A stretch of 64,000 nt of DNA from Terriglobia bacterium (lineage in GTDB: Bacteria; Acidobacteriota; Terriglobia; 20CM-2-55-15): positions 192,001 to 256,000 of the forward strand of contig CBDCLE010000026.1 in NCBI GenBank assembly GCA_965218585.1, read 5' to 3'. The translations under genes and the position numbers were made by a program. Shown here piece by piece: positions 1 through 23,746 of this stretch. The notes under the pieces were generated by a model. It worked only from the letters and a program-made list of their open reading frames with translations. It was not told the origin of the DNA and searched no databases. Every line of letters begins with the position of its first letter. Position 1 is the stretch's first letter.

Positions 1-1121
1 GCGGCCGTCCCGCAGGGCCCGATCTCCGCTTCAAGATGCCGGTAGGCCTCACCACATGGAACGTCTCCTCCATCGGGTTTGTCCGTTTGCCCGGCAAAGT
101 GCGTGTCGATCCGGCGAACGCGGTCGAACACTGTAACGCGATACTTATCGAAATCCGAAACGGTTCGCCCAAGTCCTGCATCAACGATCCCGTCGAAGCC
201 GACTTCGGCCATAAGGCTACGTGCCCCGACCTTGTCGACGCCCGAGAGCGCGAGACGTGGATCATCAATGTATAGCTGGTCGCCCCCGAGAAGATAGCGA
301 TCGATCCTCCTGACGTCGAAGCCTTTTTCCAACGCCCAGCACTCAGCAACTTTCGTCTTCAGATCCCCGAAGGTCTCTCCCTTGACCAAAACCGACGTGG
401 CCCAATTCTCTTCGGTAATCGTGTCGCGGTCCTGAAGAATGAGGGCGACGCCGGTGGGGTCCAGATAGGGCAGCGCCGCGAGCGCCCAAAGAAACGCTTG
501 TCCCAAATTGCCTAACCCAACCAGCCAGAGCGCGCCGGGCAGGAATACCTCCGCGAAGCGCGGCGCCTTGTCGCCTGCCCTGACAGGCCACAGGTCGATC
601 TCAGCTCGGAGGTCGCGGCAGCGTCCTCTCTCAGCTTCGAAGGCCGCACCGACCGCCAGCGCACCGGCGGCTATTCCGGGCAGCGGATTATCACCTTCGT
701 CCGAGCAGCCTCCACCCGGCGTAGTGATGCCCGCTCGCCAGTCTTCCCACCACGGCGAAACAGACCAAGCTTCGATGCGCGCTCCGTTCGTGCCGACAAA
801 GATCCTGCGCAACGAGCAGCCGTCGAATCCGAAGGCGCCAGCCAAGATGGCTGCCTCAGCGAGGCTTTCCGCAGCAAATGGAAGGGATGAATTGAAAGGC
901 CCATCTATGGCCCCCGAGACCCGAACACCACCGACGAACGTTCTACTAGCTACCGACACAGCCGTCAGTATGGCGGCGTGAGCTGCGGGCGAAGTGGCAT
1001 CGGGCCCCACAACAATCTCTAGGGTGAGCGCCCGCAACTTGGCCTGTGCTTCATCAAAAGAAATGTTCTCGCTGTCGACAAGTATCTTCGCCAGACGCGT
1101 AATCTGTAAATCTAACGCCAT
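1..1121 (-). CDS. bilD: ThiF/E1-like ubiquitin-activating enzyme (BilD-like), 3' end beyond window
   Basis: Hand translation from ATG at 1121 (in-frame alternative 1130): MALDLQITRLAKILVDSE...LWLVGLGNLGQAFLW...QDRDTITEENWATS...IVDAGLG...EIGPCGTAA, open to position 1. GxGxxG loop, candidate catalytic CG. Overlaps JAB stop. Not in ORF track. Confidence 0.85.
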   Translation of the reverse strand, partial: MALDLQITRLAKILVDSENISFDEAQAKLRALTLEIVVGPDATSPAAHAAILTAVSVASRTFVGGVRVSGAIDGPFNSSLPFAAESLAEAAILAGAFGFDGCSLRRIFVGTNGARIEAWSVSPWWEDWRAGITTPGGGCSDEGDNPLPGIAAGALAVGAAFEAERGRCRDLRAEIDLWPVRAGDKAPRFAEVFLPGALWLVGLGNLGQAFLWALAALPYLDPTGVALILQDRDTITEENWATSVLVKGETFGDLKTKVAECWALEKGFDVRRIDRYLLGGDQLYIDDPRLALSGVDKVGARSLMAEVGFDGIVDAGLGRTVSDFDKYRVTVFDRVRRIDTHFAGQTDKPDGGDVPCGEAYRHLEAEIGPCGTA

Positions 1122-1633
1122 GGCCACCATCCGACGTGCAATGGCGACGGGCGGTCGAAGCTGCGGTCCCGCCATTGGCGCGAACCAACGTATTCGTACA
1201 CGCCGATGCGGCCCGGACTGGTTGACCGTGCTGCGAAATACGGGAGGATAACAGCGATGTGGCCGACTTCGGCCATGATCGGATTCGCACGGTCGGACTC
1301 GCTCTGTCGGAAATCACCCGGATGAACGTGGACATCGGCGACAACGGCCCGACCAGTTCTCCGACAATGCAGCCAGAGATCGCCAAGCCGACGGCCATCG
1401 ATTTCGACAATGCCGCTCCTCAGGGCACCCGGATCGATGTCGTCGTAAAAGACGAACTCCTCGATTCGACGTGTCTTGCACCTGGAGCCCAAAAGAAAAG
1501 CGCCGCTCTCGACCCGCCCGCCAGCACGTCGCCTAAGTTCTGCGACGCCAGTGCACCAAACCTCTGCGTCACAAAGAATTTCAGGCGGAGGCCCGAGGAC
1601 GCTGCGCGCGAGCGTTGCTATTAAGGACGCCAT
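1112..1633 (-). CDS. bilC: JAB/MPN metallopeptidase (BilC-like deubiquitinase)
   Basis: ESGAFLLG and VADVHVHP...QSESD (E, HxH, SxxD JAMM motif); likely ATG at 1633 overlapping E2 end. Confidence 0.85.
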   Translation of the reverse strand: MASLIATLARSVLGPPPEILCDAEVWCTGVAELRRRAGGRVESGAFLLGSRCKTRRIEEFVFYDDIDPGALRSGIVEIDGRRLGDLWLHCRRTGRAVVADVHVHPGDFRQSESDRANPIMAEVGHIAVILPYFAARSTSPGRIGVYEYVGSRQWRDRSFDRPSPLHVGWWPWR

Positions 1634-2057
1634 GGAGATCCTCGAAAATGAAAGCAATCCGCCGCTCAGGGGTCCATGCAAGGTGTGGGAAAGTGACCGC
1701 GTTGCTATTGTGGCGGCCGGTCATCCGATCCCATGGGCGGTAGACGCTATCCTTTCCCCAGCATTGAAAAGTCTTCTCGACCCGAGCGCCTCCCTTTGGT
1801 CGCAGCTCACCTGCAAGGGGAGCGTTCCGCTCATGGTCCCAGATCCGAACCATCGGTGCCTGAGCCGGATAATTCGATAGCTCGGCCCGAAATCCGTATT
1901 CGCTGGTCGTGCTGTCCGGCTCAGTCGCGGAAATCACAAAGTCTAGTATGGGGAACTCATTCGAAATGATACGCCAACGCCCCGCATCGCAGCCGCTGAG
2001 AAAATCGCTTTCCTTGAGATCGGCGGCGATGCGGGCAATGCTGGGATCGGCGATCAC
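1581..2057 (-). CDS. bilB: E2-like conjugating protein (BilB-like)
   Basis: Between Ubl and JAB; NYPAQAP...WD...YRPWDR...H...W pattern of bacterial E2 folds; GTGA overlap with Ubl stop. Confidence 0.75.
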   Translation of the reverse strand: MIADPSIARIAADLKESDFLSGCDAGRWRIISNEFPILDFVISATEPDSTTSEYGFRAELSNYPAQAPMVRIWDHERNAPLAGELRPKGGARVEKTFQCWGKDSVYRPWDRMTGRHNSNAVTFPHLAWTPERRIAFIFEDLHGVLNSNARAQRPRASA

Positions 2058-2599
2058 AAGCAGCTCCCATTGGCAATATCGCCACGCACCAGATCAAGGG
2101 CAAGCTCACAGTCTTTTCCGGCCAAATGTCCGACATGCTCCGGCCCGTGCAGTTCCTCCTTGTGGCCACGCCGCGCTAGTTCGAACTCTGCTGCCATGCT
2201 CGAGTCGATATCGAACACCTCAATTGCCCAAGCGAGAACGTCCTTGACGGCCTCAAACCGCTTGAACGCACGTCTGTGTTCGCCCTCCTGATAGTACACA
2301 GTCACTGCTACCTCACCCGTGTGATGGACGTGGTGGCGGCGTTGATGAAAGTAGTTTGCGTCGACCACGATGGCAGGTGTCAGCGGTTCGGTCTCTCCCT
2401 CGCGGACTAGAATTAGCTCTTCGACATTGCAGCCGCGCTCGGCAGCAACTACTTCGAGGATCGCGGTCACGCTACTGCCCAACTCCAGTTCGACGAACCT
2501 CTCCTCGATGCAACCCAATTTCACCGGGATCGAGAACTTCCGCTCGGCCTGCGGCGAGTTCCCGCGGGCATCAGCGCCATTTTTTTCAGTCATTTCCAC
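2054..2599 (-). CDS. bilA: Ubiquitin-like protein (BilA-like, probably two beta-grasp domains)
   Basis: First gene of Ubl-E2-JAB-E1 operon; 181 aa ending LDLVRGDIANG-SCL; GGAG RBS. Confidence 0.7.
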   Translation of the reverse strand: MEMTEKNGADARGNSPQAERKFSIPVKLGCIEERFVELELGSSVTAILEVVAAERGCNVEELILVREGETEPLTPAIVVDANYFHQRRHHVHHTGEVAVTVYYQEGEHRRAFKRFEAVKDVLAWAIEVFDIDSSMAAEFELARRGHKEELHGPEHVGHLAGKDCELALDLVRGDIANGSCL

Positions 2600-2661
2600 A
2601 ATCTCCAGCAGTATTTTTGATCACCAGCGGTGCGGACCTTCCCCACCGACAGCGCCTCTGA

Positions 2662-2690
2662 AGAGTAGCAACTTCGAAAATATGTGTCAA
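2662..2690 (-). promoter_or_regulatory. sigma70-type promoter of bil operon
   Basis: Minus strand TTGACA-N17-TACTCT. Confidence 0.65.
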
Positions 2691-2771
2691 CACCACACAC
2701 GTAAAAGTATGTATAAGTTTGTGAAAAACACATTAATTAGACTTGACGCACACCTAGGAAAGGGGCAGTCT

Positions 2772-3149
2772 ATGAGCGTGTCGGATATGGAGCTTTATCG
2801 TCGCCTCGGGCGGGCAGTTGCCAAGCGACGCGCAGAACTCGGTTTCACCCAAGACGACGTTGCAAAAAGGCTAGGCCTTTCCAGAGCCTCAGTCGCCAAT
2901 CTCGAAAACGGCCGTCAGCGCATCATGGTGCATCAGCTTTTCGCGCTAGCGAACACACTGAACCTCAAAACGATTCTGGATCTAGTACCCAAGACCTGGG
3001 CACCTCCGGGTCCTTTACCGGAGATCAAGGTGAGCGGTTCGGCCCTAAGCCCGCAGCAGCAATCGGCGGTCGAAAACCTGCTTGCCACAGCCTTAACTGA
3101 AGATCGTCTGAGAAACATTCGTCGTGAATCCGTACGCCCAAAGGGATAA
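2772..3149 (+). CDS. XRE-family HTH regulator (CapH-like)
   Basis: MSVSDMELY...TQDDVAKRLGLSRASVANLENG; ATG 2772, divergent from bil operon. Confidence 0.85.
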   Translation: MSVSDMELYRRLGRAVAKRRAELGFTQDDVAKRLGLSRASVANLENGRQRIMVHQLFALANTLNLKTILDLVPKTWAPPGPLPEIKVSGSALSPQQQSAVENLLATALTEDRLRNIRRESVRPKG

Positions 3150-3654
3150 AGCTCGGCGAGCAGCACAGTCCCTGCTTAGCCACCATCGCGTAAGAGCGGC
3201 GCCTGTCCATGTCGAGCGCATAGCCAAGTCCCTTGGTGTGCGCGTCGAGTACGCTCCACTCGACAGTGAACTCTCCGGACTCGCACATATTCGGGATGGC
3301 GTTCCGATCGTAGGCATCAACACGCTGCACGCCCCCAATCGGCAGCGCTTTACGCTCGCCCACGAATTGGGCCACGTTCAGCTTCACCGCCATGAGATTG
3401 AGCACGCCGTACATGTTGATCGCGGTTCGCTACGGCGTGACGCCCTTGCAGCTGAGGGCGTGGACCCTATTGAAATCGAAGCAAACACCTTTGCGGCCGA
3501 ATTGCTCATGCCGACGGACCTCTTAACAACGGCACTCGAAAGACGTTCCGTTGATCTTGAAGATGACAAAGCTGTAACGGCGCTGGCCAAGCGCTTTAGG
3601 GTAAGCGAAGCCGCCATGCGCTATCGGCTGAACTCGCTCGGAGAATCGGAGTGA
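3124..3654 (+). CDS. ImmA/IrrE Zn-metallopeptidase (CapP-like)
   Basis: RQRFTLAHELGH (HExxH) and EANTFAAELLMP. Confidence 0.9.
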   Translation: MNPYAQRDKARRAAQSLLSHHRVRAAPVHVERIAKSLGVRVEYAPLDSELSGLAHIRDGVPIVGINTLHAPNRQRFTLAHELGHVQLHRHEIEHAVHVDRGSLRRDALAAEGVDPIEIEANTFAAELLMPTDLLTTALERRSVDLEDDKAVTALAKRFRVSEAAMRYRLNSLGESE

Positions 3655-5115
3655 GTTTCGTCATCTACGACGTTGAGACCACAGGGCTCACAAGAGGATT
3701 CGATCAAATCGTTGAGTTTGGGGCTATCCGCACAGATTCAGCGCTGAAGTTAACGGACCACTTTCAGATCCGCTGTCGCCTCATGCCTCATGTCATCCCT
3801 TCGCCGAGGGCGCTGTACATTACGGGGCTTCGAATAGAGCAGCTCCTCGATGCATCTCTACCCTCGCACTATGCGATGGTCACAGAGATCCAACGAATCC
3901 TCGACTCATGGTGCCCAGCCCTATTCCTGGGATTTAACTCCTTGTCATTCGATGAGGAATTTTTACGCCGAGCCTTCTATCAGTGTCTTCACCGCCCGTT
4001 CTTGACGAACACTCGGGGAAGCGCTAGAGCCGACGTGCTTAATCTGTGCCGCATGACGGTAGCTCTCAGGCCCCGACGTGATGAAGGCGGCGACCGACGA
4101 GAATGGTCACACAATCTTCAAGCTCAAGGCGCTTGCTGAGACCAACGGCATTGCAGTGCCCTTGTCGCATAGCGCTATGGCGGACGCATCGACAACGCTT
4201 GCGCTTTGCCAAATCATCAGAAGTGGTGCACCTGAAGTCTGGTCACAGTTTCTGAGATTCAGCCAGAAAGCGACTGTCGAGTCTTTCATGAGCGAAGAAG
4301 ACGCTTTTTTGGTATCGGAGACTGTCGGCAATCATCATCGTATCCGCCTCGTAACCCCGATCGGCACACACAGCGAACGAGCGACACGTTACTACTGCCT
4401 TGACCTTGCCACCAATCTTGATGAGCTCCGGGAGATGTCAGATGGGGAACTGATCTGCCTATGTAAGAGCGCCTCACGGCCAATCGTGACAGTTCGCACG
4501 AACGCAGCGCCGACGCTATGGCCGCTCTATGATGCGACTCAAGAACATGTCGCTCCATTCGAGGACGAAACCCAGGTCTTGATGCGTGTCGCACAGATCC
4601 GAACAGCTGGGCCGTTCTTGGAACGGCTTCGAAGAGCGGCCGAGGCAGCCGAACCGTTTTATCCGCCACGAGCGCATGTGGAAGAGCAGCTGTACGCGGG
4701 TGGATTCCCGCTGCCGCAGGACGAAATTCTCATGCGGCGTTTTCATGCAGCCCCTTGGGAACAACGCGCTACGCTGGCGCGCCAACTCAGTGACGCTAGA
4801 TACCATCACCTAGCTCTACGACTCATCTATCTTGAACGGCCTGACTTGCTTGCAATTGAGCGCCGATACGCTGCAGACGACGAGGTGCGCAAACGCCTCA
4901 TGGCTGCTACCGACGCCAACGTGCCTTGGCGCTCAATTCCAGCGGCCCAGCGAGACATGAAAGCTCTCCTAGAATCACGGCTCGAAGGCGATGATTTGGC
5001 GAATCAACTGCGGTACTTGGACTATTTGGAAGAACGCGCGGCCGCGCTTGAAATGCCAATCTCGGGAGCTGGACGCTCGTGCGTCTCTACGGATGTCTGC
5101 TTGACTCGTCAGTGA
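3651..5115 (+). pseudogene. Exonuclease I (SbcB)-like DEDDh exonuclease, frameshift near 4070 (possibly sequencing error)
   Basis: IYDVETTG, GFNSLSFDEE in ORF 3651-4139; SHSAMADA and HVEEQLYAGGF in ORF 4078-5115. Confidence 0.75.
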
Positions 5116-5149
5116 CACAGCGACACGAGGTTACCAGCCACGTGATTCT

Positions 5150-5270
5150 GAATGTGCGGATAAAAACAACGTTGAGTGGCACTACATCGACTTGGTCAAG
5201 CCCATGCATAACGCCTTCATCGAGAGCTTCAACAGCAAGCTGCCCGGCGAACTGCTCAATGCGGTCGGGA
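5150..5270 (+). mobile_element. IS3-family transposase fragment
   Basis: KPMHNAFIESFNSKL integrase-core motif. Confidence 0.55.
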
Positions 5271-5283
5271 CACATTTTCGCTT

Positions 5284-5598
5284 TCAGTCCCAGTCGCCCT
5301 CGGCGTCCCGCCTGAGCGCCTCAGCGAGCTCCGGATCACCCTCGCCGCGGCGGACGGAGCGCTCCACCAGATCGACCCGCCGTCCCAGATCGGCGAGCCC
5401 GGCGCCGCGCGCGGCAGCGTAGACGGCAGCGGCGACGGCAGCCATCACCAGCCCAAGGTGCAAGCCGATGGCGAGGCCATAGTCAGCGAAAATCACCCGC
5501 CAGAACGGCGCCAGATACTCCAAGCGCGAACCACCGGCGAGGACGGTCGATCCGGCAAGAGCCGCGGTCAGGCCGGCGCTGATTCTCCAGGGCTGCAT
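5284..5598 (-). CDS. Small membrane protein of conjugative-element module (copy 1)
   Basis: Hydrophobic segments; paralog at 11877-12190. Confidence 0.55.
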   Translation of the reverse strand: MQPWRISAGLTAALAGSTVLAGGSRLEYLAPFWRVIFADYGLAIGLHLGLVMAAVAAAVYAAARGAGLADLGRRVDLVERSVRRGEGDPELAEALRRDAEGDWD

Positions 5599-6776: not shown

Positions 6777-7449
6777 ATGAGTGAAAGAACCGAAACTCTG
6801 CTCAGAAGCGTCTTTACGGAGACCATTCAGTCTGCGCTCGTCGCCGCCATAAGCTCTGCTTACGACCTGAACATGGAACGCTATGCGCCCGAAGTTGGGG
6901 ACGACGCCATGTTGTTCGGCTTGATGAACTACAAGTCAAAAGTCCCACTTCTTAACGCGTCTGGGGGTCGATGCCTCCAAAGACTGGGTCACCGTCATCC
7001 GCCAGACGCCATCCTTTGAGTTCAAGATCGGGAACTACAAGCTGTCGGCCTACTGCGCAGGACACACTAGCACTGTCGAGCCCCGAAATGCGTTTCCCTA
7101 CAATAGAAACCGCGCAGCAAGGATAGTCGAAACGAATCGGAACCAGTTGTCGTTCCCCTTTGCTATCTCCGGCAAAGAAGCTCCTGATGTCGACGACTCG
7201 AAATGCCCTGAACTAGTACTCGCTGACATCGGGAATCCCCTAGAGGGCCTCCTCAAGGTTTTTCTCGCCGTTCCGATCGAAAAAGACGAGGATGGCCGGA
7301 TTACGCGTTGGGGAACGATTCTCGAGATTTGGAACAAGGCATCGCACGAGCGTCCACGGGTCGCTTCCGGCACGCCTTCCCCACCACCGGAGCCGATCAA
7401 GGAACCCGTCGTCACGTTGCGAACAAACACCGTGGAGCGAGAGCGTTGA
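6777..7449 (+). CDS. Hypothetical ~220 aa protein, putative toxin; one frameshift near 6943
   Basis: Frame change joins MSERTET...NYKSK to HFLTRLG...NQLSFPF...VERER; stop overlaps TTG start of next gene. Confidence 0.55.
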
Positions 7450-8552
7450 AGCCACTCGATCTTTACACGGCAGCCCACATGTTCGAGGCAGACCAACTGC
7501 GGCTGGCACGGGAATACCGGGGGCTTCAAAGAAAGGAACTCGCAAAGTTGCTTGGCGTAACACCGAGCGCCGTCAGCCAATACGAGGCGGGTAGGATCAA
7601 GCCAACGCCGCAGATGATTTCCCGTATGAAGCTAGCGCTGCACTTTCCAGTTGGTTTCTTCGTCGAGCCTCCCTCGTCCAGCGTCGCCGTCGACCAGTGT
7701 CACTTTCGTAGTTTGCGGTCTTGCACGCAAACGCAACGCAGGAGAATGGCCGCGGCAGCCACCCTCGTGGGAGGGCTGGTTGCACATCTTGCTGTCAATG
7801 TCGATTTCCCTACGGAAAACCTACTCTTGTTAGTGTCAGATCCACCAGACAGTGACGAAGAGATCGAAGGGCTGGCAGTCGATGCACGGAAACACTGGGG
7901 CCTGGGTCTGGGTCCGATCACACACATCTCGAAACTCGTTGAAAGTCACGGCGTCGTAGTCAGCCGTACTTTCCACGATTGCGCACAAGTCGACGCGTTC
8001 TCGCTTTGGCACTCGGCGCGCCCCTTGATATTCCTGAATGCCGACAAGAATAGCGGGACACGAAGCCGCTATGATGTCGCTCACGAACTTGGGCATCTCG
8101 TTATGCATACCGACTGCCTTCCTGGCGACCAAAGACACGAGCAGCAAGCCCATCGGTTCGCAGGCGCATTTCTACTACCGCGAGAAACCTTTGGTCGTGA
8201 ATGTCCGAGGCGTTTAATCTGGCCGCATTTGCTGGAACTCAAAGAACGATGGGGCGTTTCCCTGTCAGCTATCGCGCATCGCGCCTTCGATATCGGACTC
8301 TTCTCCGCTAGCGCATACCGACGGGCCAACGTTCAGTTGTCCCAACGCGGCTGGCGGGATAAGGAGCCTCAGGAGCCGTTGCCGGAGGAGCCAACGCTCC
8401 TGCGCCGCGCCCTTTCTCTGTTGGAAACAACCGGTAAGACCCTTGCCAGCATTGCCAGCGAGCTGAACATGACCCAGCACGACATCGAACTACTTGTCGG
8501 CGGTCCATTTCAACCACAGAAGGATCGGCCGAGTCTCTCTTTCGGCGAATGA
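7446..8552 (+). CDS. XRE-HTH plus ImmA/IrrE peptidase fusion (antitoxin-like)
   Basis: LAKLLGVTPSAVSQYEAG HTH, HFRS, AHELGH, EQQAHRFAGAFLLP; start at 7446 or ATG 7479. Confidence 0.88.
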   Translation: MKPLDLYTAAHMFEADQLRLAREYRGLQRKELAKLLGVTPSAVSQYEAGRIKPTPQMISRMKLALHFPVGFFVEPPSSSVAVDQCHFRSLRSCTQTQRRRMAAAATLVGGLVAHLAVNVDFPTENLLLLVSDPPDSDEEIEGLAVDARKHWGLGLGPITHISKLVESHGVVVSRTFHDCAQVDAFSLWHSARPLIFLNADKNSGTRSRYDVAHELGHLVMHTDCLPGDQRHEQQAHRFAGAFLLPRETFGRECPRRLIWPHLLELKERWGVSLSAIAHRAFDIGLFSASAYRRANVQLSQRGWRDKEPQEPLPEEPTLLRRALSLLETTGKTLASIASELNMTQHDIELLVGGPFQPQKDRPSLSFGE

Positions 8553-8560
8553 GGGCCTAG

Positions 8561-10297
8561 CCCGCATATTTCACCAATAGGACCAGAAAAGGCCGCCCTG
8601 TCTGGCATAAAGCGTTTTGGAATAAACGTTTAACAAGCCAAACGGAGACGGCCCTTATGAGAACAGAGTGTAACCAAGTCACGTTCGAATTTCACGGACT
8701 ACTTCATCGAAAAGTGAAGGCGCGTTTTGACGGCGGAAAGATCACCTCCGACGCTGGGGTTCTGCTGTTGCGGGAAGTGGAAAAGCGAACCGGGTTGATC
8801 GACGGACTGGCCCAGTGTTTTACCGATCACCGGACCAGAGGTTGATCGAACACACGGTAAAGGAATTGTTGGGGCAGCGTGTCTATGGGCTCTGTTTGGG
8901 ATATGAAGACCTGAACGATCACGACCAGCTGCGGACCGATCCGATGCTGGCCGTGGCAGTGGAGAAGGCCGATCCTTTGGGAGAGAGCCGACGCCAGGCC
9001 GGGGACCGGGGAAAGGCGCTGGCGGGCAAGTGTACGCTCAACCGGCTGGAGCTGAGAGGGGCTGAGGCCGATGGCCAGGAGCGGTACAAGAAGATCGTCA
9101 TGGATGAGGACCGGATTGAGGGCTGGATGGTCGATGCGTTTCTAGCCGCCCACGACACGGCACCGGAAGAGATTGTTCTGGACATGGACGCGACCGATGA
9201 TCCGATCCATGGTCAACAGGAAGGCCGGTTCTTTCACGGCTACTACCGCCGCTATTGCTATCTGCCTTTGTACATCTTCTGTGGCGAACATCTGTTGTGC
9301 GCCCGTCTGCGCCGATCCAATATCGATGGTGCCGATGGAGCGGTGGATGAGTTGAAACGTATCATCGGCCAGATCCGTCACGGCTGGCCGGAAGTGAGGA
9401 TCATCATCCGGGCCGATTCCGGCTTTTGCCGGGATGAATTACTCCGTTGGTGTGAGGTCCATCAGCTCGATTACGTGATCGGGTTGGCCAAGAACGACCG
9501 TCTCAAGCGAGAGATTGCTCAAGAAATGACTCAGGCCGAAGCGGAGTTTAACACCACCGGAAAACCGGCGCGGGTGTTTAAGGATTTCCAGTACCGGACC
9601 CTGAAGAGCTGGAGCTGCACCCGACGCGGCGTTGCCAAGGCCGAGTTCCTGAACAAGGGTGCCAATCCTCGATTCGTGGTGACCTCATTACCGACAAAAC
9701 GCCTCGCCGCCCAAGCTCTCTATGAAGATTTCTACTGCGCTCGCGGTGACATGGAGAACCGCATCAAGGAACAACAACTGGATCTGTTTGCCGACCGCAC
9801 CAGCGCGGCGACGATGCGTGCCAATCAGCTCCGGCTGTATCTATCCTCAGCCGCTTACATGCTCATGCATGCACTGCGTCGTCTGGGGCTCAAGGATACC
9901 CCGCTGGCCCGCGCTCAATGCCAGACCATCCGCCTGAAGCTTCTCAAGATCGGCGCTCGCATCCGCCTGACGGTCCGCAACGTCTGGCTCTCGATGTCGG
10001 AGGCCTATCCCTACGCCGAAGTCTTTGCGACCATCCTTCGCAACCTGCAGTCGATTCCTCTGCGGTGCTGACACAGGACCCCGATCCACGGCTCCAAAAT
10101 AGACTTGTTTCTTTCTCCGACGGAGAGCTCTGCCTGACTACCTTATCCAGGCCTCCTTCAAACCCCAGAAACAAACCCACTCATGGCCAGCGACACCCTG
10201 ATTGTCCCCATCCGTGCCTTACCGGAACCCAGACTCTCCCAACGCCCACTCTTCCGCACGAAAACGCGCTTCATTCACGATTGGTGAAATATGCGGG
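8561..10297 (+). mobile_element. IS1380-family element, copy 1 (transposase 8657-10071, one frameshift)
   Basis: IRs CCCGCATATTTCACCAAT; CTAG on both flanks; FDGGKITSDAG, DMDATDD, RADSGF, RGDMENRIKE. Confidence 0.93.
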
Positions 10298-15837: not shown

Positions 15838-16878
15838 GTGACGGGCGAAGGGAAAATCGACCGGAACAATAATATGGTGAAGCGATTTTTGAACAAACTT
15901 GATGGTTGGGTCCGCAATAGGACCCATCGCATCCTTGGTTTTCTTGAAGATCGGCTTGCACCGTTCACCTTGATGGTACTTGCAGCCGTGCTTACTCTCT
16001 CGATCTGGTTCTGGGATTCGTGGAGAGGGGAAGAAGAATCTGTCGGCATGGCAATCCGCAATCTTGTTCTGGCCATTGCCGCAATAGCTGCGTTGCCCCT
16101 TGCCATTTGGCGCAGCAAGGTGGCCGAACGTCAGGTTGCCACGGCACAGGGCGGCCTGCTGAACGAACGCTATCAAAAAGGTGCGGAAATGCTGGGCAGC
16201 AAGAATCTCCCGGTCCGTCTCGGCGGTATCTATGCCCTTGCGGATTTGGCTCGTGAGCACCCCGAGGACTATCACACGAAGAGTATGAGTCTCCTCTGCG
16301 CGTTCGTGCGCCACCCGGTCGGGGAATCTATTGAGGCAGCCTTGCCGATAAAAGGCTTAACCCCCGCCGCCGAATTCATACACGGTTGGGATGAAGAAGA
16401 TGAGGCAATCTATGGGGTCGGCAAAGGCCGACCGCTGCGGGTGCGCGAGGATGTTCAGGCAGTCATGACGGCGATCGGTGAGCGCATCGAGGCTCAAATC
16501 AGAACAGAAAAAAGGGAAAACTACAGGCTGGAGTTAAGCGGAACGAAGCTGAGATTTGTGCAGCTGCTCGATGCTGACCTGAACCGTACGAACCTGCTCG
16601 ATGCAGATCTGACCAGTGCGGTGGTGGTCGGTACGTATCTGAAAGATGCGTATCTGAAAGGTGCAAATTTTGAAAGTGCGAATCTGCTCCGGGCGAATTT
16701 GACCGGCGCTGACCTGAGAGATTCTAGAGGTCTCACCCAAGAGCAAATTGATCAAGCGCAGGCGGATTCCGGCAACCCGCCGAATCTAACGGATGTCGTT
16801 GACGCCACGACCGGCAAACCGCTGGTCTGGCGCGGCGACCCATTCCGGAGTGATAGGACAGGAATCAGAACACGATAA
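15838..16878 (+). CDS. Membrane-anchored pentapeptide-repeat protein
   Basis: Two TMs, ERYQKGAEMLG...VRLGGIYAL, ADL/ANL repeats. Confidence 0.85.
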   Translation: MTGEGKIDRNNNMVKRFLNKLDGWVRNRTHRILGFLEDRLAPFTLMVLAAVLTLSIWFWDSWRGEEESVGMAIRNLVLAIAAIAALPLAIWRSKVAERQVATAQGGLLNERYQKGAEMLGSKNLPVRLGGIYALADLAREHPEDYHTKSMSLLCAFVRHPVGESIEAALPIKGLTPAAEFIHGWDEEDEAIYGVGKGRPLRVREDVQAVMTAIGERIEAQIRTEKRENYRLELSGTKLRFVQLLDADLNRTNLLDADLTSAVVVGTYLKDAYLKGANFESANLLRANLTGADLRDSRGLTQEQIDQAQADSGNPPNLTDVVDATTGKPLVWRGDPFRSDRTGIRTR

Positions 16879-16960
16879 GAATGCGAGATCGGAAACAAGT
16901 ACGTTTTTTCGATTCAAGTGAACCTGCTGGACGCCGCGCCGCATGCGTGCTGCTGACGCC

Positions 16961-19819
16961 GTGACGGCGGGTGAGTTCATCGCCAAGTGGCGGGCGTCGG
17001 AACTGAAGGAGCGCGCGGCTTCTCAGGAGCACTTCATCGACCTGTGTCGACTGCTGGTCGAGCCGACGCCAGCGGAGGCCGACCCGACGGGCGATCGCTA
17101 CTGCTTCGAACGTGGAGCGCGCAAGGACACAGGCGGCGACGGCTGGGCCGACGTGTGGAAGCGGCACTGCTTCGCATGGGAGTACAAGGGCAAGCGCAAG
17201 GATCTCGACACGGCTTTCAATCAGTTGCGACAGTATGCGCTGGCGCTGGAAAACCCGCCCCTGCTTGTCGTCTCGGATATGGCGCGGTTCCGAATCCGCA
17301 CTAACTGGACGAACAGCGTGAGCGAGACGCATGAATTCACGCTCGACGATCTCGCGGACGGCGCAATCCGAGACAAGCTCAAATGGGTTATGTCTGACCC
17401 GGAGCGGCTGCGGCCGGGCGAGACGCGGCAGGCGGTAACCGAACGCGCGGCGACAACCTTCGCGGAGCTTGCGCAATCGCTGCGGAACCGGGGCCACGAT
17501 CCGCAAACGGTGGCGCATTTTGTCAACCGTCTCGTGTTCTGTATGTTCGCCGAGGATGTGGGCCTGCTGGCCGACAACATGTTCACCCGGATGCTGGAAC
17601 ATGCGCGGTGCCGGCCGGATGAGTTCGCCGCCCTGGCGCAGGACTTATTCGGAGCGATGTCCGCCGGCGGTCGGATCGGGTTCGAGGCGGTGGCATGGTT
17701 CAACGGCGGACTGTTCGACGACGATGCCGCCTTGCCTCTCGACAAGGCCGGGATCGAGACAACGCTCAAGGCGGCGGCGCTCGACTGGTCGGAGATCGAC
17801 CCTTCGATCCTGGGCACGCTGTTCGAGCGTGGGCTCGACCCGGACAAGCGTTCGCAGCTTGGCGCGCATTACACGGACCGCGACAAGATCATGCGGATCA
17901 TTGAGCCCGTGGTCGTCCGTCCCTGGCTCGCCGAATGGGAGTCGGCGAAGGTCGAGATCGCCGCCGAACTGAAACGGGCGGACGCCGCCCGATCGCGGCC
18001 CGCCCGCGCAAGACGACGCAAGGAGGCCGAACAGCAGTACCGGGCGTTTCTCAACCGACTGCGCGCGTTCACGGTGCTCGATCCGGCATGCGGCTCGGGC
18101 AACTTCCTCTACCTCGCCATACAGGCGCTCAAGGACCTGGAGCACCGGGTGCAGCTTGAGGCGGAGGCCTTGGGTTTCCAGCGCGCGTTCCCGGAAACCG
18201 GCCCGGCCAACGTCAAGGGCATCGAGATCAACCCGTACGCGGCCGAGCTAGCGCGCGTGTCAGTATGGATCGGAGAGATCCAATGGATGCGGCGCAACGG
18301 CTTCGCGGAAGCGCGCGACCCGATCCTGAAACCGCTCGACACCATCGAGTGCCGCGATGCGATCCTGACGCCGGAGGGCGGTGAGCCGGATTGGCCGGAG
18401 TCCGATGTCGTGATCGGCAACCCGCCCTTTCTTGGCGGAAAGCTTCTCAACACCAACCTTGGCGACGACTATGTATCGAGAGTTTTCAGTCTTTATGAAG
18501 GCCGCGTGCCAGCAGAGGCCGACCTCGTCTGCTACTGGTTCGTGAAGGCCGGCGAGCACGTGGGGGCGGGCAATGCGAAACGTGTGGGCCTTGTATCGAC
18601 CAACTCAATTCGTGGTGGGGCGAACCGGCGGGCGTTGCAGAACGCGATCGCTGATCGCCCAATATTCGAAGCATGGAGCGACGAACCTTGGGTGATCGAT
18701 GGCACGGCAGTGCGCGTTTCCATAGTGTGTTTCTCGCGACAGGAGGCCGGGGCGGTGCTGGAAAGACGGCTCGATGGCCAGCCTGTGGATGCCGTCCACG
18801 CCGATCTGACCGCGCTGCGCGGTGGGGCTGGCGTGGATTTGACGGTAGCACAACGTCTTGAACGGAACATCGGCGTCGCGTTCATGGGCGACACGAAGGG
18901 TGGCGCGTTCGACGTGTCGGGGACCCAAGCACGCCAATGGCTCTGCCTGCCGGCAAACCCAAACGGTCGGACCAATGCCGACGTTCTGAAACCGTGGATC
19001 AACGGAATAGCCCTCACCCGGCGGCCGGCAGATAAGTGGATTGTCGATTTCGGGTGGACAATATCAGAGCGCGATGCGGCTCTCTACGAAGAGCCGTTTC
19101 GGTGGGTGCGGGAACGTGTCTACCTGAAGCGGCAGGAAAACCGCCGCGAATCCTATCGCGACCAGTGGTGGCGGCATGTCGAGCCGAGACAGGGCATGTG
19201 GCGGGCTCTCGATGACCTGCCGCGCTTTATTGCCACACCCACCGTCGCCAAGCACCGGTTGTTCGTCTGGTGCGATGCGCGCATCTGTCCCGACCATGCC
19301 CTGATCGTCGTCGCGCGCGACGACGACACGATGTTCGGCATCCTGCACAGCCGATTTCACGAGGCGTGGTCGTTGCGGCTCGGCACATGGCTTGGTAAGG
19401 GCAACGATCCCCGCTACACCCCAACCACGACCTTCGAAACCTTCCCCTTCCCGGACGGCCTCTCTCCCGATATTCCCGACGACGACTATGCGAACGACCC
19501 CCGCGCTGTTGCCATAGCCGCGGCCGCGCGGCGACTTGTCGAACTCCGCGACCGCTGGCTCAACCCGCCCGAATGGGTGGAATGGGTGGACGAGCCGGTT
19601 CCCGGCTATCCCAAGCGCCCGGTTCCCCGTGACGAGGAGGCCGCGAAGGTGCTCAGGACGCGTACGCTGACGAGCCTCTACAACACCCGCCCGCAATGGC
19701 TCGCGGACGCACATGCGGCCCTGGATGCTTCGGTCGCGGCCGCCTACGGTTGGCCGGCCGACATCCTCGATGACGAGGCCCTCCGCGAACTGCATGCGCT
19801 TAACTTGGCGGGTGGCTGA
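16961..19819 (+). CDS. Type IIG (MmeI/YeeA-like) restriction-modification enzyme
   Basis: N-terminal AD...WEYK nuclease motif, GAHYT, LDPACGSGNF, GNPPF; C-terminal target-recognition region. Confidence 0.9.
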   Translation: MTAGEFIAKWRASELKERAASQEHFIDLCRLLVEPTPAEADPTGDRYCFERGARKDTGGDGWADVWKRHCFAWEYKGKRKDLDTAFNQLRQYALALENPPLLVVSDMARFRIRTNWTNSVSETHEFTLDDLADGAIRDKLKWVMSDPERLRPGETRQAVTERAATTFAELAQSLRNRGHDPQTVAHFVNRLVFCMFAEDVGLLADNMFTRMLEHARCRPDEFAALAQDLFGAMSAGGRIGFEAVAWFNGGLFDDDAALPLDKAGIETTLKAAALDWSEIDPSILGTLFERGLDPDKRSQLGAHYTDRDKIMRIIEPVVVRPWLAEWESAKVEIAAELKRADAARSRPARARRRKEAEQQYRAFLNRLRAFTVLDPACGSGNFLYLAIQALKDLEHRVQLEAEALGFQRAFPETGPANVKGIEINPYAAELARVSVWIGEIQWMRRNGFAEARDPILKPLDTIECRDAILTPEGGEPDWPESDVVIGNPPFLGGKLLNTNLGDDYVSRVFSLYEGRVPAEADLVCYWFVKAGEHVGAGNAKRVGLVSTNSIRGGANRRALQNAIADRPIFEAWSDEPWVIDGTAVRVSIVCFSRQEAGAVLERRLDGQPVDAVHADLTALRGGAGVDLTVAQRLERNIGVAFMGDTKGGAFDVSGTQARQWLCLPANPNGRTNADVLKPWINGIALTRRPADKWIVDFGWTISERDAALYEEPFRWVRERVYLKRQENRRESYRDQWWRHVEPRQGMWRALDDLPRFIATPTVAKHRLFVWCDARICPDHALIVVARDDDTMFGILHSRFHEAWSLRLGTWLGKGNDPRYTPTTTFETFPFPDGLSPDIPDDDYANDPRAVAIAAAARRLVELRDRWLNPPEWVEWVDEPVPGYPKRPVPRDEEAAKVLRTRTLTSLYNTRPQWLADAHAALDASVAAAYGWPADILDDEALRELHALNLAGG

Positions 19820-22224: not shown

Positions 22225-23746
22225 TGAAGTGCTCCCCAAAATTCGGACAGGTCGCTAAGGTGTAAAATCGCTGCCTCGGGAGAGGCAGATGAAGAAGCGA
22301 CAGCGGAAGCAATACAGCGCAGATCTGAAGGCAAAGATCGCCGGCGAGGCGGTCAAGGGACAGAGAACGATCCAGGAGATCGGGTCGCACTACGAAGTGC
22401 ATCCGACGATGGTCACGAATTGGAAGAAGAAGTTGCTAGAGGGAGCATCGAAGATTTTCTCGAATGGCCAGGTGCAGGCTGGCGAAGCCGATGAACAGTT
22501 ACGGGCTGAACTGTATCAGCAGATCGGCAAGTTGCAGGTCGAGGTGGACTGGCTCAAAAAAAGTCCAGACTTTCTCGTTAGGTGAACGACGGTCATGGAT
22601 CAAATCGAACGACACGGAACTGAGCATCGTCGAGCAGTGCCGGTTGACCGGAGCGTCCCGGTCTGGCTTGTACTACACACCCGTGGGCGAGAGTGTCTGG
22701 AACCTCGAGTTGATGCGGCTGCTCGACGAGCAGTACACGCGGACACCGTTCTACGGCGTTCGGCGGATGACCAATTGGTTGGAGAAGCAAGGCCATCCGG
22801 TCAATGCGAAACGAGTGCGGCGACTGATGCGGCACATGGGATTGGAAGCGATCTATCCGAAACCGCGATTGTCGATGCCGGCACCAGGACATCGGATCTA
22901 TCCGTACCGGCTGCGGGGGCTGCGGATCGATCGCCCGAACTTCGTCTGGGCAACCGACATCACGTACGTCCGACTGCGTCAGGGCTTCATTTATCTGGTG
23001 GCGATCATGGACTGGTTCAGCCGGTACGTGCTGTCCTGGGAAGTGTCGGTATCGATGGACAGCGCCTTCTGCGTGTCGGCACTGGACTGGGCTTTAAAGG
23101 ACGCCCAACCGGAGATCTTCAACACGGATCAGGGAGCACAGTTCACCAGCGAGGTGTTCACCCGCCGACTGGACGACCATGGCATCACGATCAGCATGGA
23201 CGGTCGGGGGCGAGCAATGGACAACATCTTCGTCGAACGTCTGTGGCGTACGGTGAAGTACGAAGAAATCTATCTGAAGGATTACCTGAGTGCTCCCGAA
23301 GCCATCTCGAATCTGAATTCCTATTTTCGGTTCTACAATCAGGAGCGCGGTCATCAGGTCTTCGACTATCGAACGCCGGAGGCCGTGTACTTTCAGAGTG
23401 CGACGAGCGCGCCATCGGTCACCGAACGGGCCGTGTCTCAGGTCGTCCTCGACGACGATCGTCGCTCATAGACAATCCTCGCGCGACTTTTTCCGTGGAA
23501 ATCTATGCCGAGAGCGGACAGGAGCGAAACACGAGAACGAATGAACGACAGTCCAGGCCTGTGGAAACTGCCGCCGCTGTGGAAATCCTCGGAAGGATTC
23601 CCACAGCGGCTTGAAAACAGCCTCGCAGGCTCGGCTTTTTCACAGTTCCCACAGGCCCGGCGACGGGTCCAATATCAACCCATTTCAACGGCAGCGATCC
23701 ACCTTAAGACCCGGGATTTTCTGTCCGAAGAATGGGGAGCACCTCC
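22225..23746 (+). mobile_element. IS3-family element (orfA 22289-22585, orfB to 23471, programmed -1 frameshift)
   Basis: IRs GTGCTCCCC...TTCGGACAG / CTGTCCGAA...GGGGAGCAC; A7G slippery site near 22556; WATDITY, NTDQGAQF, DNIFVERLW. Confidence 0.93.
23556..23657 (+). other. Structured three-way-junction motif, copy A (IS3 3' region)
   Basis: Outer stem GGCCTGTGGAAACTG/CAGTTCCCACAGGCC, inner stem GCCGCTGTGGAAATCC/GGATTCCCACAGCGGC. Confidence 0.7.

Follow-up and report, generated by a model that had tools for sequence, protein, structure and literature searches.

A short CapH/CapP-like regulator pair coupled to an Exonuclease I-like gene recurs beside different bacterial immune operons

The window analysed here, a stretch of 64,000 nucleotides (nt) from a Terriglobia bacterium (GenBank assembly GCA_965218585.1, contig CBDCLE010000026.1, positions 192,001 to 256,000 of the forward strand), carries the immune operon BilABCD and, divergent from it, three consecutive genes for a putative XRE-family helix-turn-helix (HTH) repressor, a short CapP-like M78 zinc peptidase and a predicted Exonuclease I (ExoI)-like enzyme. 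This triad is found in many other genomes ahead of immune operons of several classes and is tentatively interpreted as a controller of the adjacent operon, in which the exonuclease may tune the alarm. The features of the locus, numbered from the first letter of the window, are the following:

3-1175, minus strand, open at the window edge: bilD, E1-like (PADLOC BilD, 1.3e-102)
1112-1681, minus strand: bilC, JAB deubiquitinase-like (PADLOC BilC, 3.8e-58)
1581-2057, minus strand: bilB, E2-like, DUF7665 (PADLOC BilB, 8.9e-46; Pfam DUF7665, 1.3e-22)
2054-2599, minus strand: bilA, ubiquitin-like (PADLOC BilA, 3.8e-36)
2600-2771, no strand: shared divergent control region of 172 nt between bilA and the HTH gene
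2772-3149, plus strand: capH-like gene for an XRE-family HTH repressor of 125 amino acids (Pfam HTH_3, 8.6e-13; PADLOC capH, 5.4e-9)
3124-3654, plus strand: gene for a short CapP-like M78 zinc peptidase of 176 amino acids with the motif HELGH (Pfam Peptidase_M78, 7.3e-29; PADLOC capP, 6.4e-35)
3651-5115, plus strand: predicted gene for an ExoI-like DEDDh 3'-5' exonuclease (Pfam RNase_T and Exonuc_X-T_C; PADLOC RTasSbcB)

A first-pass annotation of the window had described an XRE-HTH gene, an overlapping HExxH peptidase gene and an SbcB-like exonuclease gene in divergent orientation to bil, and all three were found where it had placed them. The overlap between HTH and peptidase genes measures 26 nt. 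The GTG start codon of the exonuclease gene (3651-3653) overlaps the TGA stop codon of the peptidase gene (3652-3654), which bears out the proposed GTGA coupling. On the other side of the control region, bilD continues for about 228 nt past the window start (its open reading frame (ORF) ends at L132:6772, L132 being the sequence to the left of the window), with its 3' part inside the window.

In this assembly, the exonuclease gene is read as a pair of ORFs, 3651-4139 and 4078-5115, with matches to Pfam RNase_T (5.7e-10) and Exonuc_X-T_C (8.7e-16; 58.3 bits at a cut-off of 27). The PADLOC model 'RTasSbcB' matches the first ORF over model positions 2-140 (1.2e-53) and the second over positions 143-420 (1.4e-36), so that the two jointly cover 2-420 of its 436 positions. 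The frame break consists of one extra C: the assembly reads CCCC at 4071-4074, where CCC keeps the frame, and homologues of about 472 amino acids read LRPDV across the break, which needs CCC. Logan contigs of four public runs (X1-X4, of which X1 and X2 stem from one sample and X4 from a second study) were compared with positions 3400-4800. The contigs from X1, X2 and X4 each drop one letter at 4071 and show no other differences, and two contigs from X3 end and begin exactly at the break; these contigs have a depth of no more than 3-4, and the source sample of the window may be that of X1 and X2. Since contigs from two studies and the homologues agree on CCC, the gene is probably intact, and the break probably reflects an assembly error or a minor or rare variant rather than an old lesion. 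The first-pass annotation had named a real and old frameshift as an observation that would speak against its circuit; the three public contigs without the extra C argue against such a frameshift. From the coordinates, the exonuclease has 487 amino acids once the extra C is removed; its 345 further codons form an open frame with 72% identity to the nearest homologue. This assembly thus seems to contain at least one homopolymer-length error, and other split genes of the contig may share the cause; the ORFs 22464-23471 and 22595-23614, which overlap, may be explained by a similar error or by a natural frameshift of the IS3 type.

The exonuclease matches Escherichia coli ExoI (SbcB) with an E-value of about 1e-31 over residues 2-361. 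The five catalytic residues D7, E9, D101, H173 and D178 of the DEDDh type are invariant in all 30 triad exonucleases aligned. An AlphaFold2 model of the orthologous exonuclease from locus L002 (pLDDT 91.7) was matched by Foldseek to E. coli ExoI (4js4_A) with a TMq of 0.82 and a TMt of 0.84 over about 487 columns at 24% identity, and the ExoI-specific SH3-like and C-terminal helical domains are present according to this alignment and to the Exonuc_X-T_C match. E. coli SbcB thus has the three-domain fold, the Pfam domains and the DEDDh residues in common with the triad enzyme, which sequence and model indicate to be a full-length ExoI relative with a complete set of catalytic residues. In a hand alignment, the equivalent of R148 of E. 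coli ExoI is kept and that of Y207, which we take to be a contact site for the tail of the single-stranded DNA-binding protein (SSB), is replaced by Q. The triad gene provides the sole Exonuc_X-T_C match in the genome of the window and in all five other triad genomes searched; among 14 control genomes, such a match was found in E. coli only.

The preceding two genes follow the arrangement of CapH+CapP ('controller of adjacent pathways'), in which an XRE-HTH gene and an M78 HExxH peptidase gene lie upstream of and divergent from immune operons such as Bil, Bub and CBASS (cyclic oligonucleotide-based antiphage signalling systems). In canonical CapP, the peptidase domain is followed by an HTH-like linker and a GAF domain, and a cysteine switch is present in 134 out of 408 CapP proteins that are associated with CBASS (Lau 2022, 10.1101/2022.04.27.489752; cited, like the other published sources below, from its available text). 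The peptidase of the window differs from this architecture. It has 176 amino acids instead of 291, its match to the PADLOC capP model covers positions 3-155 of 242, and the sequence ends after the helical linker; it aligns to residues 86-173 of the 291-amino-acid CapP chain from Thauera (7t5t). A model of the orthologous peptidase from L002 (81% identical to that of the window; pLDDT 86) likewise matched 7t5t best (TMq 0.67, TMt 0.44), followed by IrrE and PprI. Both the GAF domain and the cysteine-switch loop are absent. The 33 peptidase orthologues that were aligned have 167-178 amino acids, an invariant HExxH motif and no conserved cysteine column; the peptidase of the window is free of cysteine, and among 32 orthologues, 25 have none and seven have one. 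The assignment as CapP therefore holds for gene order, placement and catalytic site, but not for the GAF domain and the cysteine switch. The first-pass annotation had also taken over from CapP that the peptidase is stimulated by single-stranded DNA (ssDNA). ssDNA activates CapP by binding to a groove between peptidase and GAF domain (Calloji 2026, 10.64898/2026.05.16.725639); because the published groove uses both domains and its GAF half is missing here, this property cannot simply be transferred. Compared with the PDB, the HTH protein matched generic XRE repressors only, at E-values of up to 0.01, and no solved CapH structure.

Relatives of the exonuclease were collected with a profile from a homologue alignment (A1), which was run on contigs from one genome per species and yielded 48 loci (numbered with the prefix L); a search with the C-terminal exonuclease ORF alone had found no relative. 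Neighbouring HTH and peptidase genes were called by phmmer using the proteins of the window as queries. A peptidase gene lies directly upstream of the exonuclease gene in 36 of the 48 loci, i.e., in 36 of the 46 assessable ones, as the contigs of L032 and L045 start too near the exonuclease gene. The HTH gene is present as well in 35 of these loci; in L006, the peptidase gene is truncated and the HTH gene is gone. Both genes are missing in 10 of the 48 loci. Of 32 loci, 11 show a 4-nt NTGA overlap between peptidase and exonuclease genes and the other 21 a spacer of 7-18 nt; no gene downstream of the exonuclease is conserved across the loci. The hosts include Candidatus Binatia, Terriglobia, Acidithiobacillus and other Gammaproteobacteria, many Alphaproteobacteria and metagenome-assembled genomes (MAGs) labelled 'Deltaproteobacteria'; the module thus occurs in Pseudomonadota, Acidobacteriota and Binatota as well as on conjugative rhizobial plasmids. 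On two conjugative Rhizobium plasmids, one triad lies beside Bil genes and the other beside multiubiquitin/ThiF genes, and the RefSeq names of the three products are helix-turn-helix protein, ImmA/IrrE family metallo-endopeptidase and exonuclease domain-containing protein.

A quick maximum-likelihood tree was calculated from 42 of the exonucleases and the C-terminal piece of that of the window; it omits L014 and L024, whose exonuclease genes are interrupted by frame breaks, L021 and L034, which nearly duplicate L020 and L033, and the truncated L036 and L045. In this tree, the triad-linked exonucleases all fall into one clade of 35 rows, which includes L032 from a contig edge and has an SH-aLRT (Shimodaira-Hasegawa-like approximate likelihood ratio test) support of 98. 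The eight out-group rows are devoid of the triad. Three of their flanks were scanned (L039, L043 and L047) and contain TsaE, thioredoxin and ZnuA/ABC-transporter genes, i.e., contexts of a housekeeping type. The triad exonucleases differ in this from E. coli SbcB, as they form a separate clade within regulator operons of defence islands and plasmids. The first-pass annotation had suggested a search for the linkage in other genomes and a tree including housekeeping SbcB; the linkage recurs widely and the linked enzymes are phylogenetically set apart, and the triad is, by this comparison of sequences, a conserved unit and not a chance adjacency. No triad-type exonuclease was found in a phage collection, in which all eight matches were less than 60% identical (best about 29%); most of the eight are flagged as host or insertion-duplication sequence at the ends of Stx prophages. 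In L041, the exonuclease, a member of the triad clade, follows a protein of 1064 amino acids with PD-(D/E)XK, RNase H-like and superfamily 1 helicase parts instead of HTH and peptidase genes (L041:2592-5786), and a relative of this protein is encoded just downstream of the triad in L022 (L022:7552-9030).

The operons divergent from the triad vary in class. For their classification, 41 representative proteins were compared with PADLOC and a subset with Pfam, and the labels were extended by clustering. Bil operons were found in nine loci in addition to the window, and a weaker Bil-like set of E1, JAB and DUF2604 genes in three. CBASS operons are present in 10 loci and comprise cyclase-HORMA-TRIP13 systems with a NucC, TIR or SAVED-nuclease effector, a cyclase with a two-transmembrane protein and a Tle1-like lipase, and a cyclase alone. 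Four loci carry E1-E2-JAB fusions, and seven carry Bub-like multiubiquitin/E2/E1 genes, some of them with DUF6527 and DUF6791. In the remaining three, the cargo was not recognised or the contig was too short, so that it is recognisable in 33 of the 36 triad loci. Cargo class differs even between loci with closely related exonucleases (E1-E2-JAB in L017 and CBASS in L018; Bil in L004 and CBASS in L005); therefore, the three genes travel as a module that is reused before different immune operons, as has been published for CapH/CapP. Proteins of about 900 amino acids from the PD-(D/E)XK nuclease family flank the E1 gene in several triad-bearing Bil or Bub-like operons, including those of the two conjugative Rhizobium plasmids (L130:1-1970, L131:1-2405, L004:7810-10515, L027:2-2284), and may be an unrecognised member of these operons. 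Genes for Ser/Thr protein kinases were seen beyond Bil-like or Bub-like cargo in L021:1-1680 and L037:280-2423.

An alignment of 14 control regions revealed an invariant TTGAC, located some 30 nt ahead of the capH start, and recurring TGTCA-like words, which, on the alignment alone, could be candidate promoter and operator sequences. A scan of positions 2500-5400 for sigma-70 promoters and terminators gave no excess over shuffled sequences, and the sole promoter-like site lies inside the exonuclease gene. The single inverted repeat between 2590 and 2780 is a 9-nt pair, and the repeat scan was not above chance.

Short peptidases of this kind are more widespread than the exonuclease. A metagenome scan with the alignment of the short peptidases gave 80 loci, in all of which the peptidase frame extends at most 19 residues past the profile, a few being cut by contig ends. 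Nine loci with less than 300 nt of downstream sequence were set aside. An exonuclease gene follows the peptidase gene after 0-34 nt in 18 loci, and these cases cluster among the peptidases with the highest similarity to the query. Because 53 of the 71 assessable short peptidases come without an exonuclease, the latter is, as far as these sequences indicate, an addition that was made within a single branch of a broader GAF-less HTH/M78 family and not a universal partner. The third position in exonuclease-less relatives is occupied by a 473-amino-acid HD-domain protein in L058:929-2350 and by a DprA-like protein (Pfam DNA_processg_A/SLOG) in L095:4520-5227, of which L099:1813-2280 encodes a relative detected by blastp.

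Several known systems are related to the triad. CapH/CapP pairs were reported beside 25 of 162 Bil operons, based on visual inspection for Pfam01381 and Pfam06114 neighbours (Chambers 2023 preprint), and CapH+CapP or CapW at 219 of 544 Bub operons (2026 CapK/CapS paper). New relative to CapH/CapP are the GAF-less peptidase and the dedicated ExoI-like gene that is coupled to it. M78 peptidases that cleave an XRE repressor after DNA damage are likewise found in IrrE/PprI with DdrO of Deinococcus and in ImmA with ImmR of ICEBs1 and phages; however, IrrE/PprI possesses a GAF domain and governs a chromosomal repair regulon, and ImmA/ImmR governs the induction of mobile elements. ImmA is presumably also a short, GAF-less form. 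In the literature searched, a coupled exonuclease is described neither for IrrE/DdrO nor for ImmA/ImmR, and no description of the triad was found either, in line with the first-pass annotation, which knew of none; supplementary operon tables could, however, list a third gene that is unnamed in the text. The word 'exonuclease' is absent from the main texts of Chambers 2023, Lau 2022, the 2026 preprint on the CapP mechanism and the 2026 CapK/CapS paper. The strongest family match for both exonuclease halves is PADLOC PDLC03817 ('RTasSbcB'), which is described as DRT (defence-associated reverse transcriptase) and shows that this exonuclease family is already catalogued near defence reverse transcriptases. 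Among the ORFs that were scanned inside the window, from 1 to 26 kb, no reverse transcriptase was found, and the main text of the UG/Abi paper mentions host SbcB only and never 'exonuclease'.

Taken together, the best explanation, although a tentative one, is that HTH protein, peptidase and exonuclease constitute a three-gene controller of the adjacent immune operon, here BilABCD. By analogy to CapH/CapP and IrrE/DdrO, the XRE repressor would close the shared control region, and the peptidase would cleave it after DNA damage or infection, which would lead to the induction of both the cargo and the controller operon. The exonuclease would serve as the module's own handler of the ssDNA signal: by degrading ssDNA with free 3' ends, it would keep the basal signal under the threshold. 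Since it would be co-induced with the peptidase on one transcript, it could also end the response, as the signal would be removed later on and fresh repressor would reclose the switch in a negative feedback, one of the roles that the first-pass annotation had proposed for the exonuclease. In hosts without another ExoI, the module would supply its own enzyme. This role in setting the threshold and resetting the switch, which is assigned by analogy, is the favoured one for the exonuclease, though somewhat less likely than not. There are two precedents for the concept. Host SbcB sets the activation threshold of DRT10/UG17 by degrading its ssDNA, so that a 3'-5' ssDNA exonuclease silences an ssDNA-dependent immune system, and a phage SSB-like protein may relieve this silencing (10.64898/2026.04.29.721553); in that case, however, the enzyme is a housekeeping protein encoded apart from the system, whereas the triad encodes its own. 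In CBASS, a small DEDDh enzyme termed 'Exo' or Cap18 is encoded with the immune system and likewise acts as a threshold device (10.1101/2022.01.04.474952; 10.1101/2025.03.04.641389). Four observations weigh against the threshold-and-reset model. With the GAF half of the published groove missing, ssDNA may not be the signal of the module at all. Two members of the triad clade on long branches, L038 and L041, have neither an HTH nor a peptidase gene upstream. The 53 metagenomic loci mentioned above contain no exonuclease gene anywhere and share no other third gene. Finally, GAF-less peptidases are the only ones with which the exonuclease occurs (all 36 genomic and all 18 metagenomic cases), which suits a role as sensor partner of the peptidase at least equally well.

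In such a role, the ExoI-like protein would bind the GAF-less peptidase and replace the GAF domain as the DNA-sensing part. Cleavage of the repressor would be licensed when the exonuclease is engaged on 3' ssDNA or when an SSB-like or anti-nuclease protein of a phage blocks or displaces it; owing to the nuclease activity, the signal would persist only while ssDNA continues to be supplied. All exonuclease-linked peptidases are indeed short and GAF-less, as seen in the 33 aligned proteins of 167-178 amino acids and in the 18 metagenomic loci, where the frame extends at most 12 amino acids past the profile; a conserved cysteine is lacking (25 of the 32 orthologues have none), and the peptidase and exonuclease genes are translationally coupled. 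The third position of related short-peptidase loci also holds other potential nucleic-acid proteins, namely the HD-domain protein of L058 and the DprA-like proteins of L095 and L099. A complex prediction for the L002 pair gave a median score of 0.45 (runs of 0.43, 0.45 and 0.57), the best of three controls reaching 0.00; at least 92% of contacts are shared between the runs, and the partner has a pLDDT of at least 78, but no interface is given. This result was graded as weak: in the calibration, 116 of 157 solved complexes reached the mark used, as did 2 of 215 mismatched pairs; scores of up to 0.60 account for only 18 of the 157 solved complexes and for both of the passing mismatches, and predictions at this level are wrong more often than right unless the pairing is likely beforehand. 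Three peptidase-exonuclease fusion proteins (P0121, P0122 and P0123) would fit a direct partnership. They are, however, singletons from single contigs. The one junction inspected, that of L009 from a MAG, is set apart from the split form by a single base next to a run of G at the usual NTGA site (L009:5473-7434), and this fusion may be an assembly error; the fusions were therefore dropped as Rosetta-stone evidence. A pure sensor, moreover, would not need five invariant catalytic residues, and 53 of the 71 short CapP-like peptidases do without an exonuclease partner. On balance, a sensor function is rather unlikely, albeit worth serious consideration.

The remaining explanations place the exonuclease outside the switch. 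It could be a second output, i.e., an effector, as the first-pass annotation had also proposed, or a repair enzyme, which would be induced by damage or infection under the same regulation as the cargo and degrade, for example, ssDNA replication intermediates of phages. An intact ExoI-type nuclease in an operon that is probably autoregulated by the repressor, hosts without another ExoI and the existence of a defence-associated PADLOC model of the family, 'RTasSbcB', are compatible with this idea, and IrrE/DdrO of Deinococcus induces DNA-repair genes after radiation (PMC12828697; Lau 2022, 10.1101/2022.04.27.489752). Against it, the exonuclease is always part of the regulator operon and never of the cargo operon, and it stays in place while the cargo class changes. 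It is also not the sole output, given the recognisable cargo in 33 of 36 triad loci, and no triad-type exonuclease was detected in the phage collection. This explanation is thus clearly unlikely. That the enzyme trims an intermediate of a nucleotide second messenger in the manner of the CBASS protein 'Exo'/Cap18 is highly improbable. Both are DEDDh enzymes encoded beside immune operons, the N-terminal exonuclease ORF has a weak match (1e-5) to the 184-position PADLOC model 'Effector Exonuclease', and 10 triad loci have CBASS cargo; however, most cargo (Bil, Bub-like, E1-E2-JAB) comes without a nucleotide cyclase. 'Exo' is a small homodimeric RNase T-like enzyme within the CBASS operon, which cuts a 2'-5' dinucleotide intermediate and has no DNA or RNA nuclease activity (10.1101/2022.01.04.474952; 10.1101/2025.03.04.641389), whereas the triad enzyme is a full three-domain ExoI of 472-487 amino acids that is encoded in the regulator operon, mostly next to non-CBASS cargo. 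A chance neighbour or decaying pseudogene without any role, as the split into two ORFs and the insertion sequence (IS) fragment behind the gene might suggest, is hardly credible in view of 36 genomic and 18 metagenomic triad loci, three public contigs without the extra C, and two halves that are both open and conserved.

The surroundings of the triad look like a mobile defence island. Directly 3' of the exonuclease gene, the C-terminal fragment of an IS transposase was identified by eye from the translation (about 5120-5260), and a DDE transposase (8815-10071, plus strand) and an IS3-type transposase (22464-23471, plus strand) are encoded further downstream. A second M78 regulator (7308-8552, plus strand) is a single protein of 414 amino acids, which according to Pfam combines an XRE-HTH at the N-terminus with a Peptidase_M78 domain at the C-terminus and resembles the PADLOC RmrA models in its architecture. 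An MmeI-like type IIL restriction-modification protein (16943-19819, plus strand) is encoded behind a pentapeptide-repeat protein, the two together occupying 15838-19819. To the left of the window (L132, G000:C26:185001-192400), bilD is followed by an IS1595-type zinc-ribbon fragment, a Mutator-family transposase and a phage-type integrase with an arm-binding domain. These features beyond bilD suggest that the Bil operon and its controller lie at the edge of an integrated element.

CapH/CapP, CapW and CapK/CapS are known as DNA-damage-responsive controllers of abortive-infection operons. A controller that encodes its own ssDNA exonuclease bears on the question of how the threshold of such controllers is set and how they are shut off, and there is a large branch of CapP-like peptidases that lack the GAF domain required by the published activation mechanism. 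For genome annotation, an 'exonuclease domain-containing protein' beside an HTH/ImmA-IrrE pair marks a controller of an immune operon and flags unknown operons next to it as candidate defence systems. If the exonuclease were the sensor, the module would guard the metabolism of ssDNA ends and not merely the amount of ssDNA, and it would act as a self-contained and portable alarm for use ahead of any immune operon in hosts that lack an ExoI of their own. The triad thus points to a previously undescribed way of tuning the CapH/CapP alarm.

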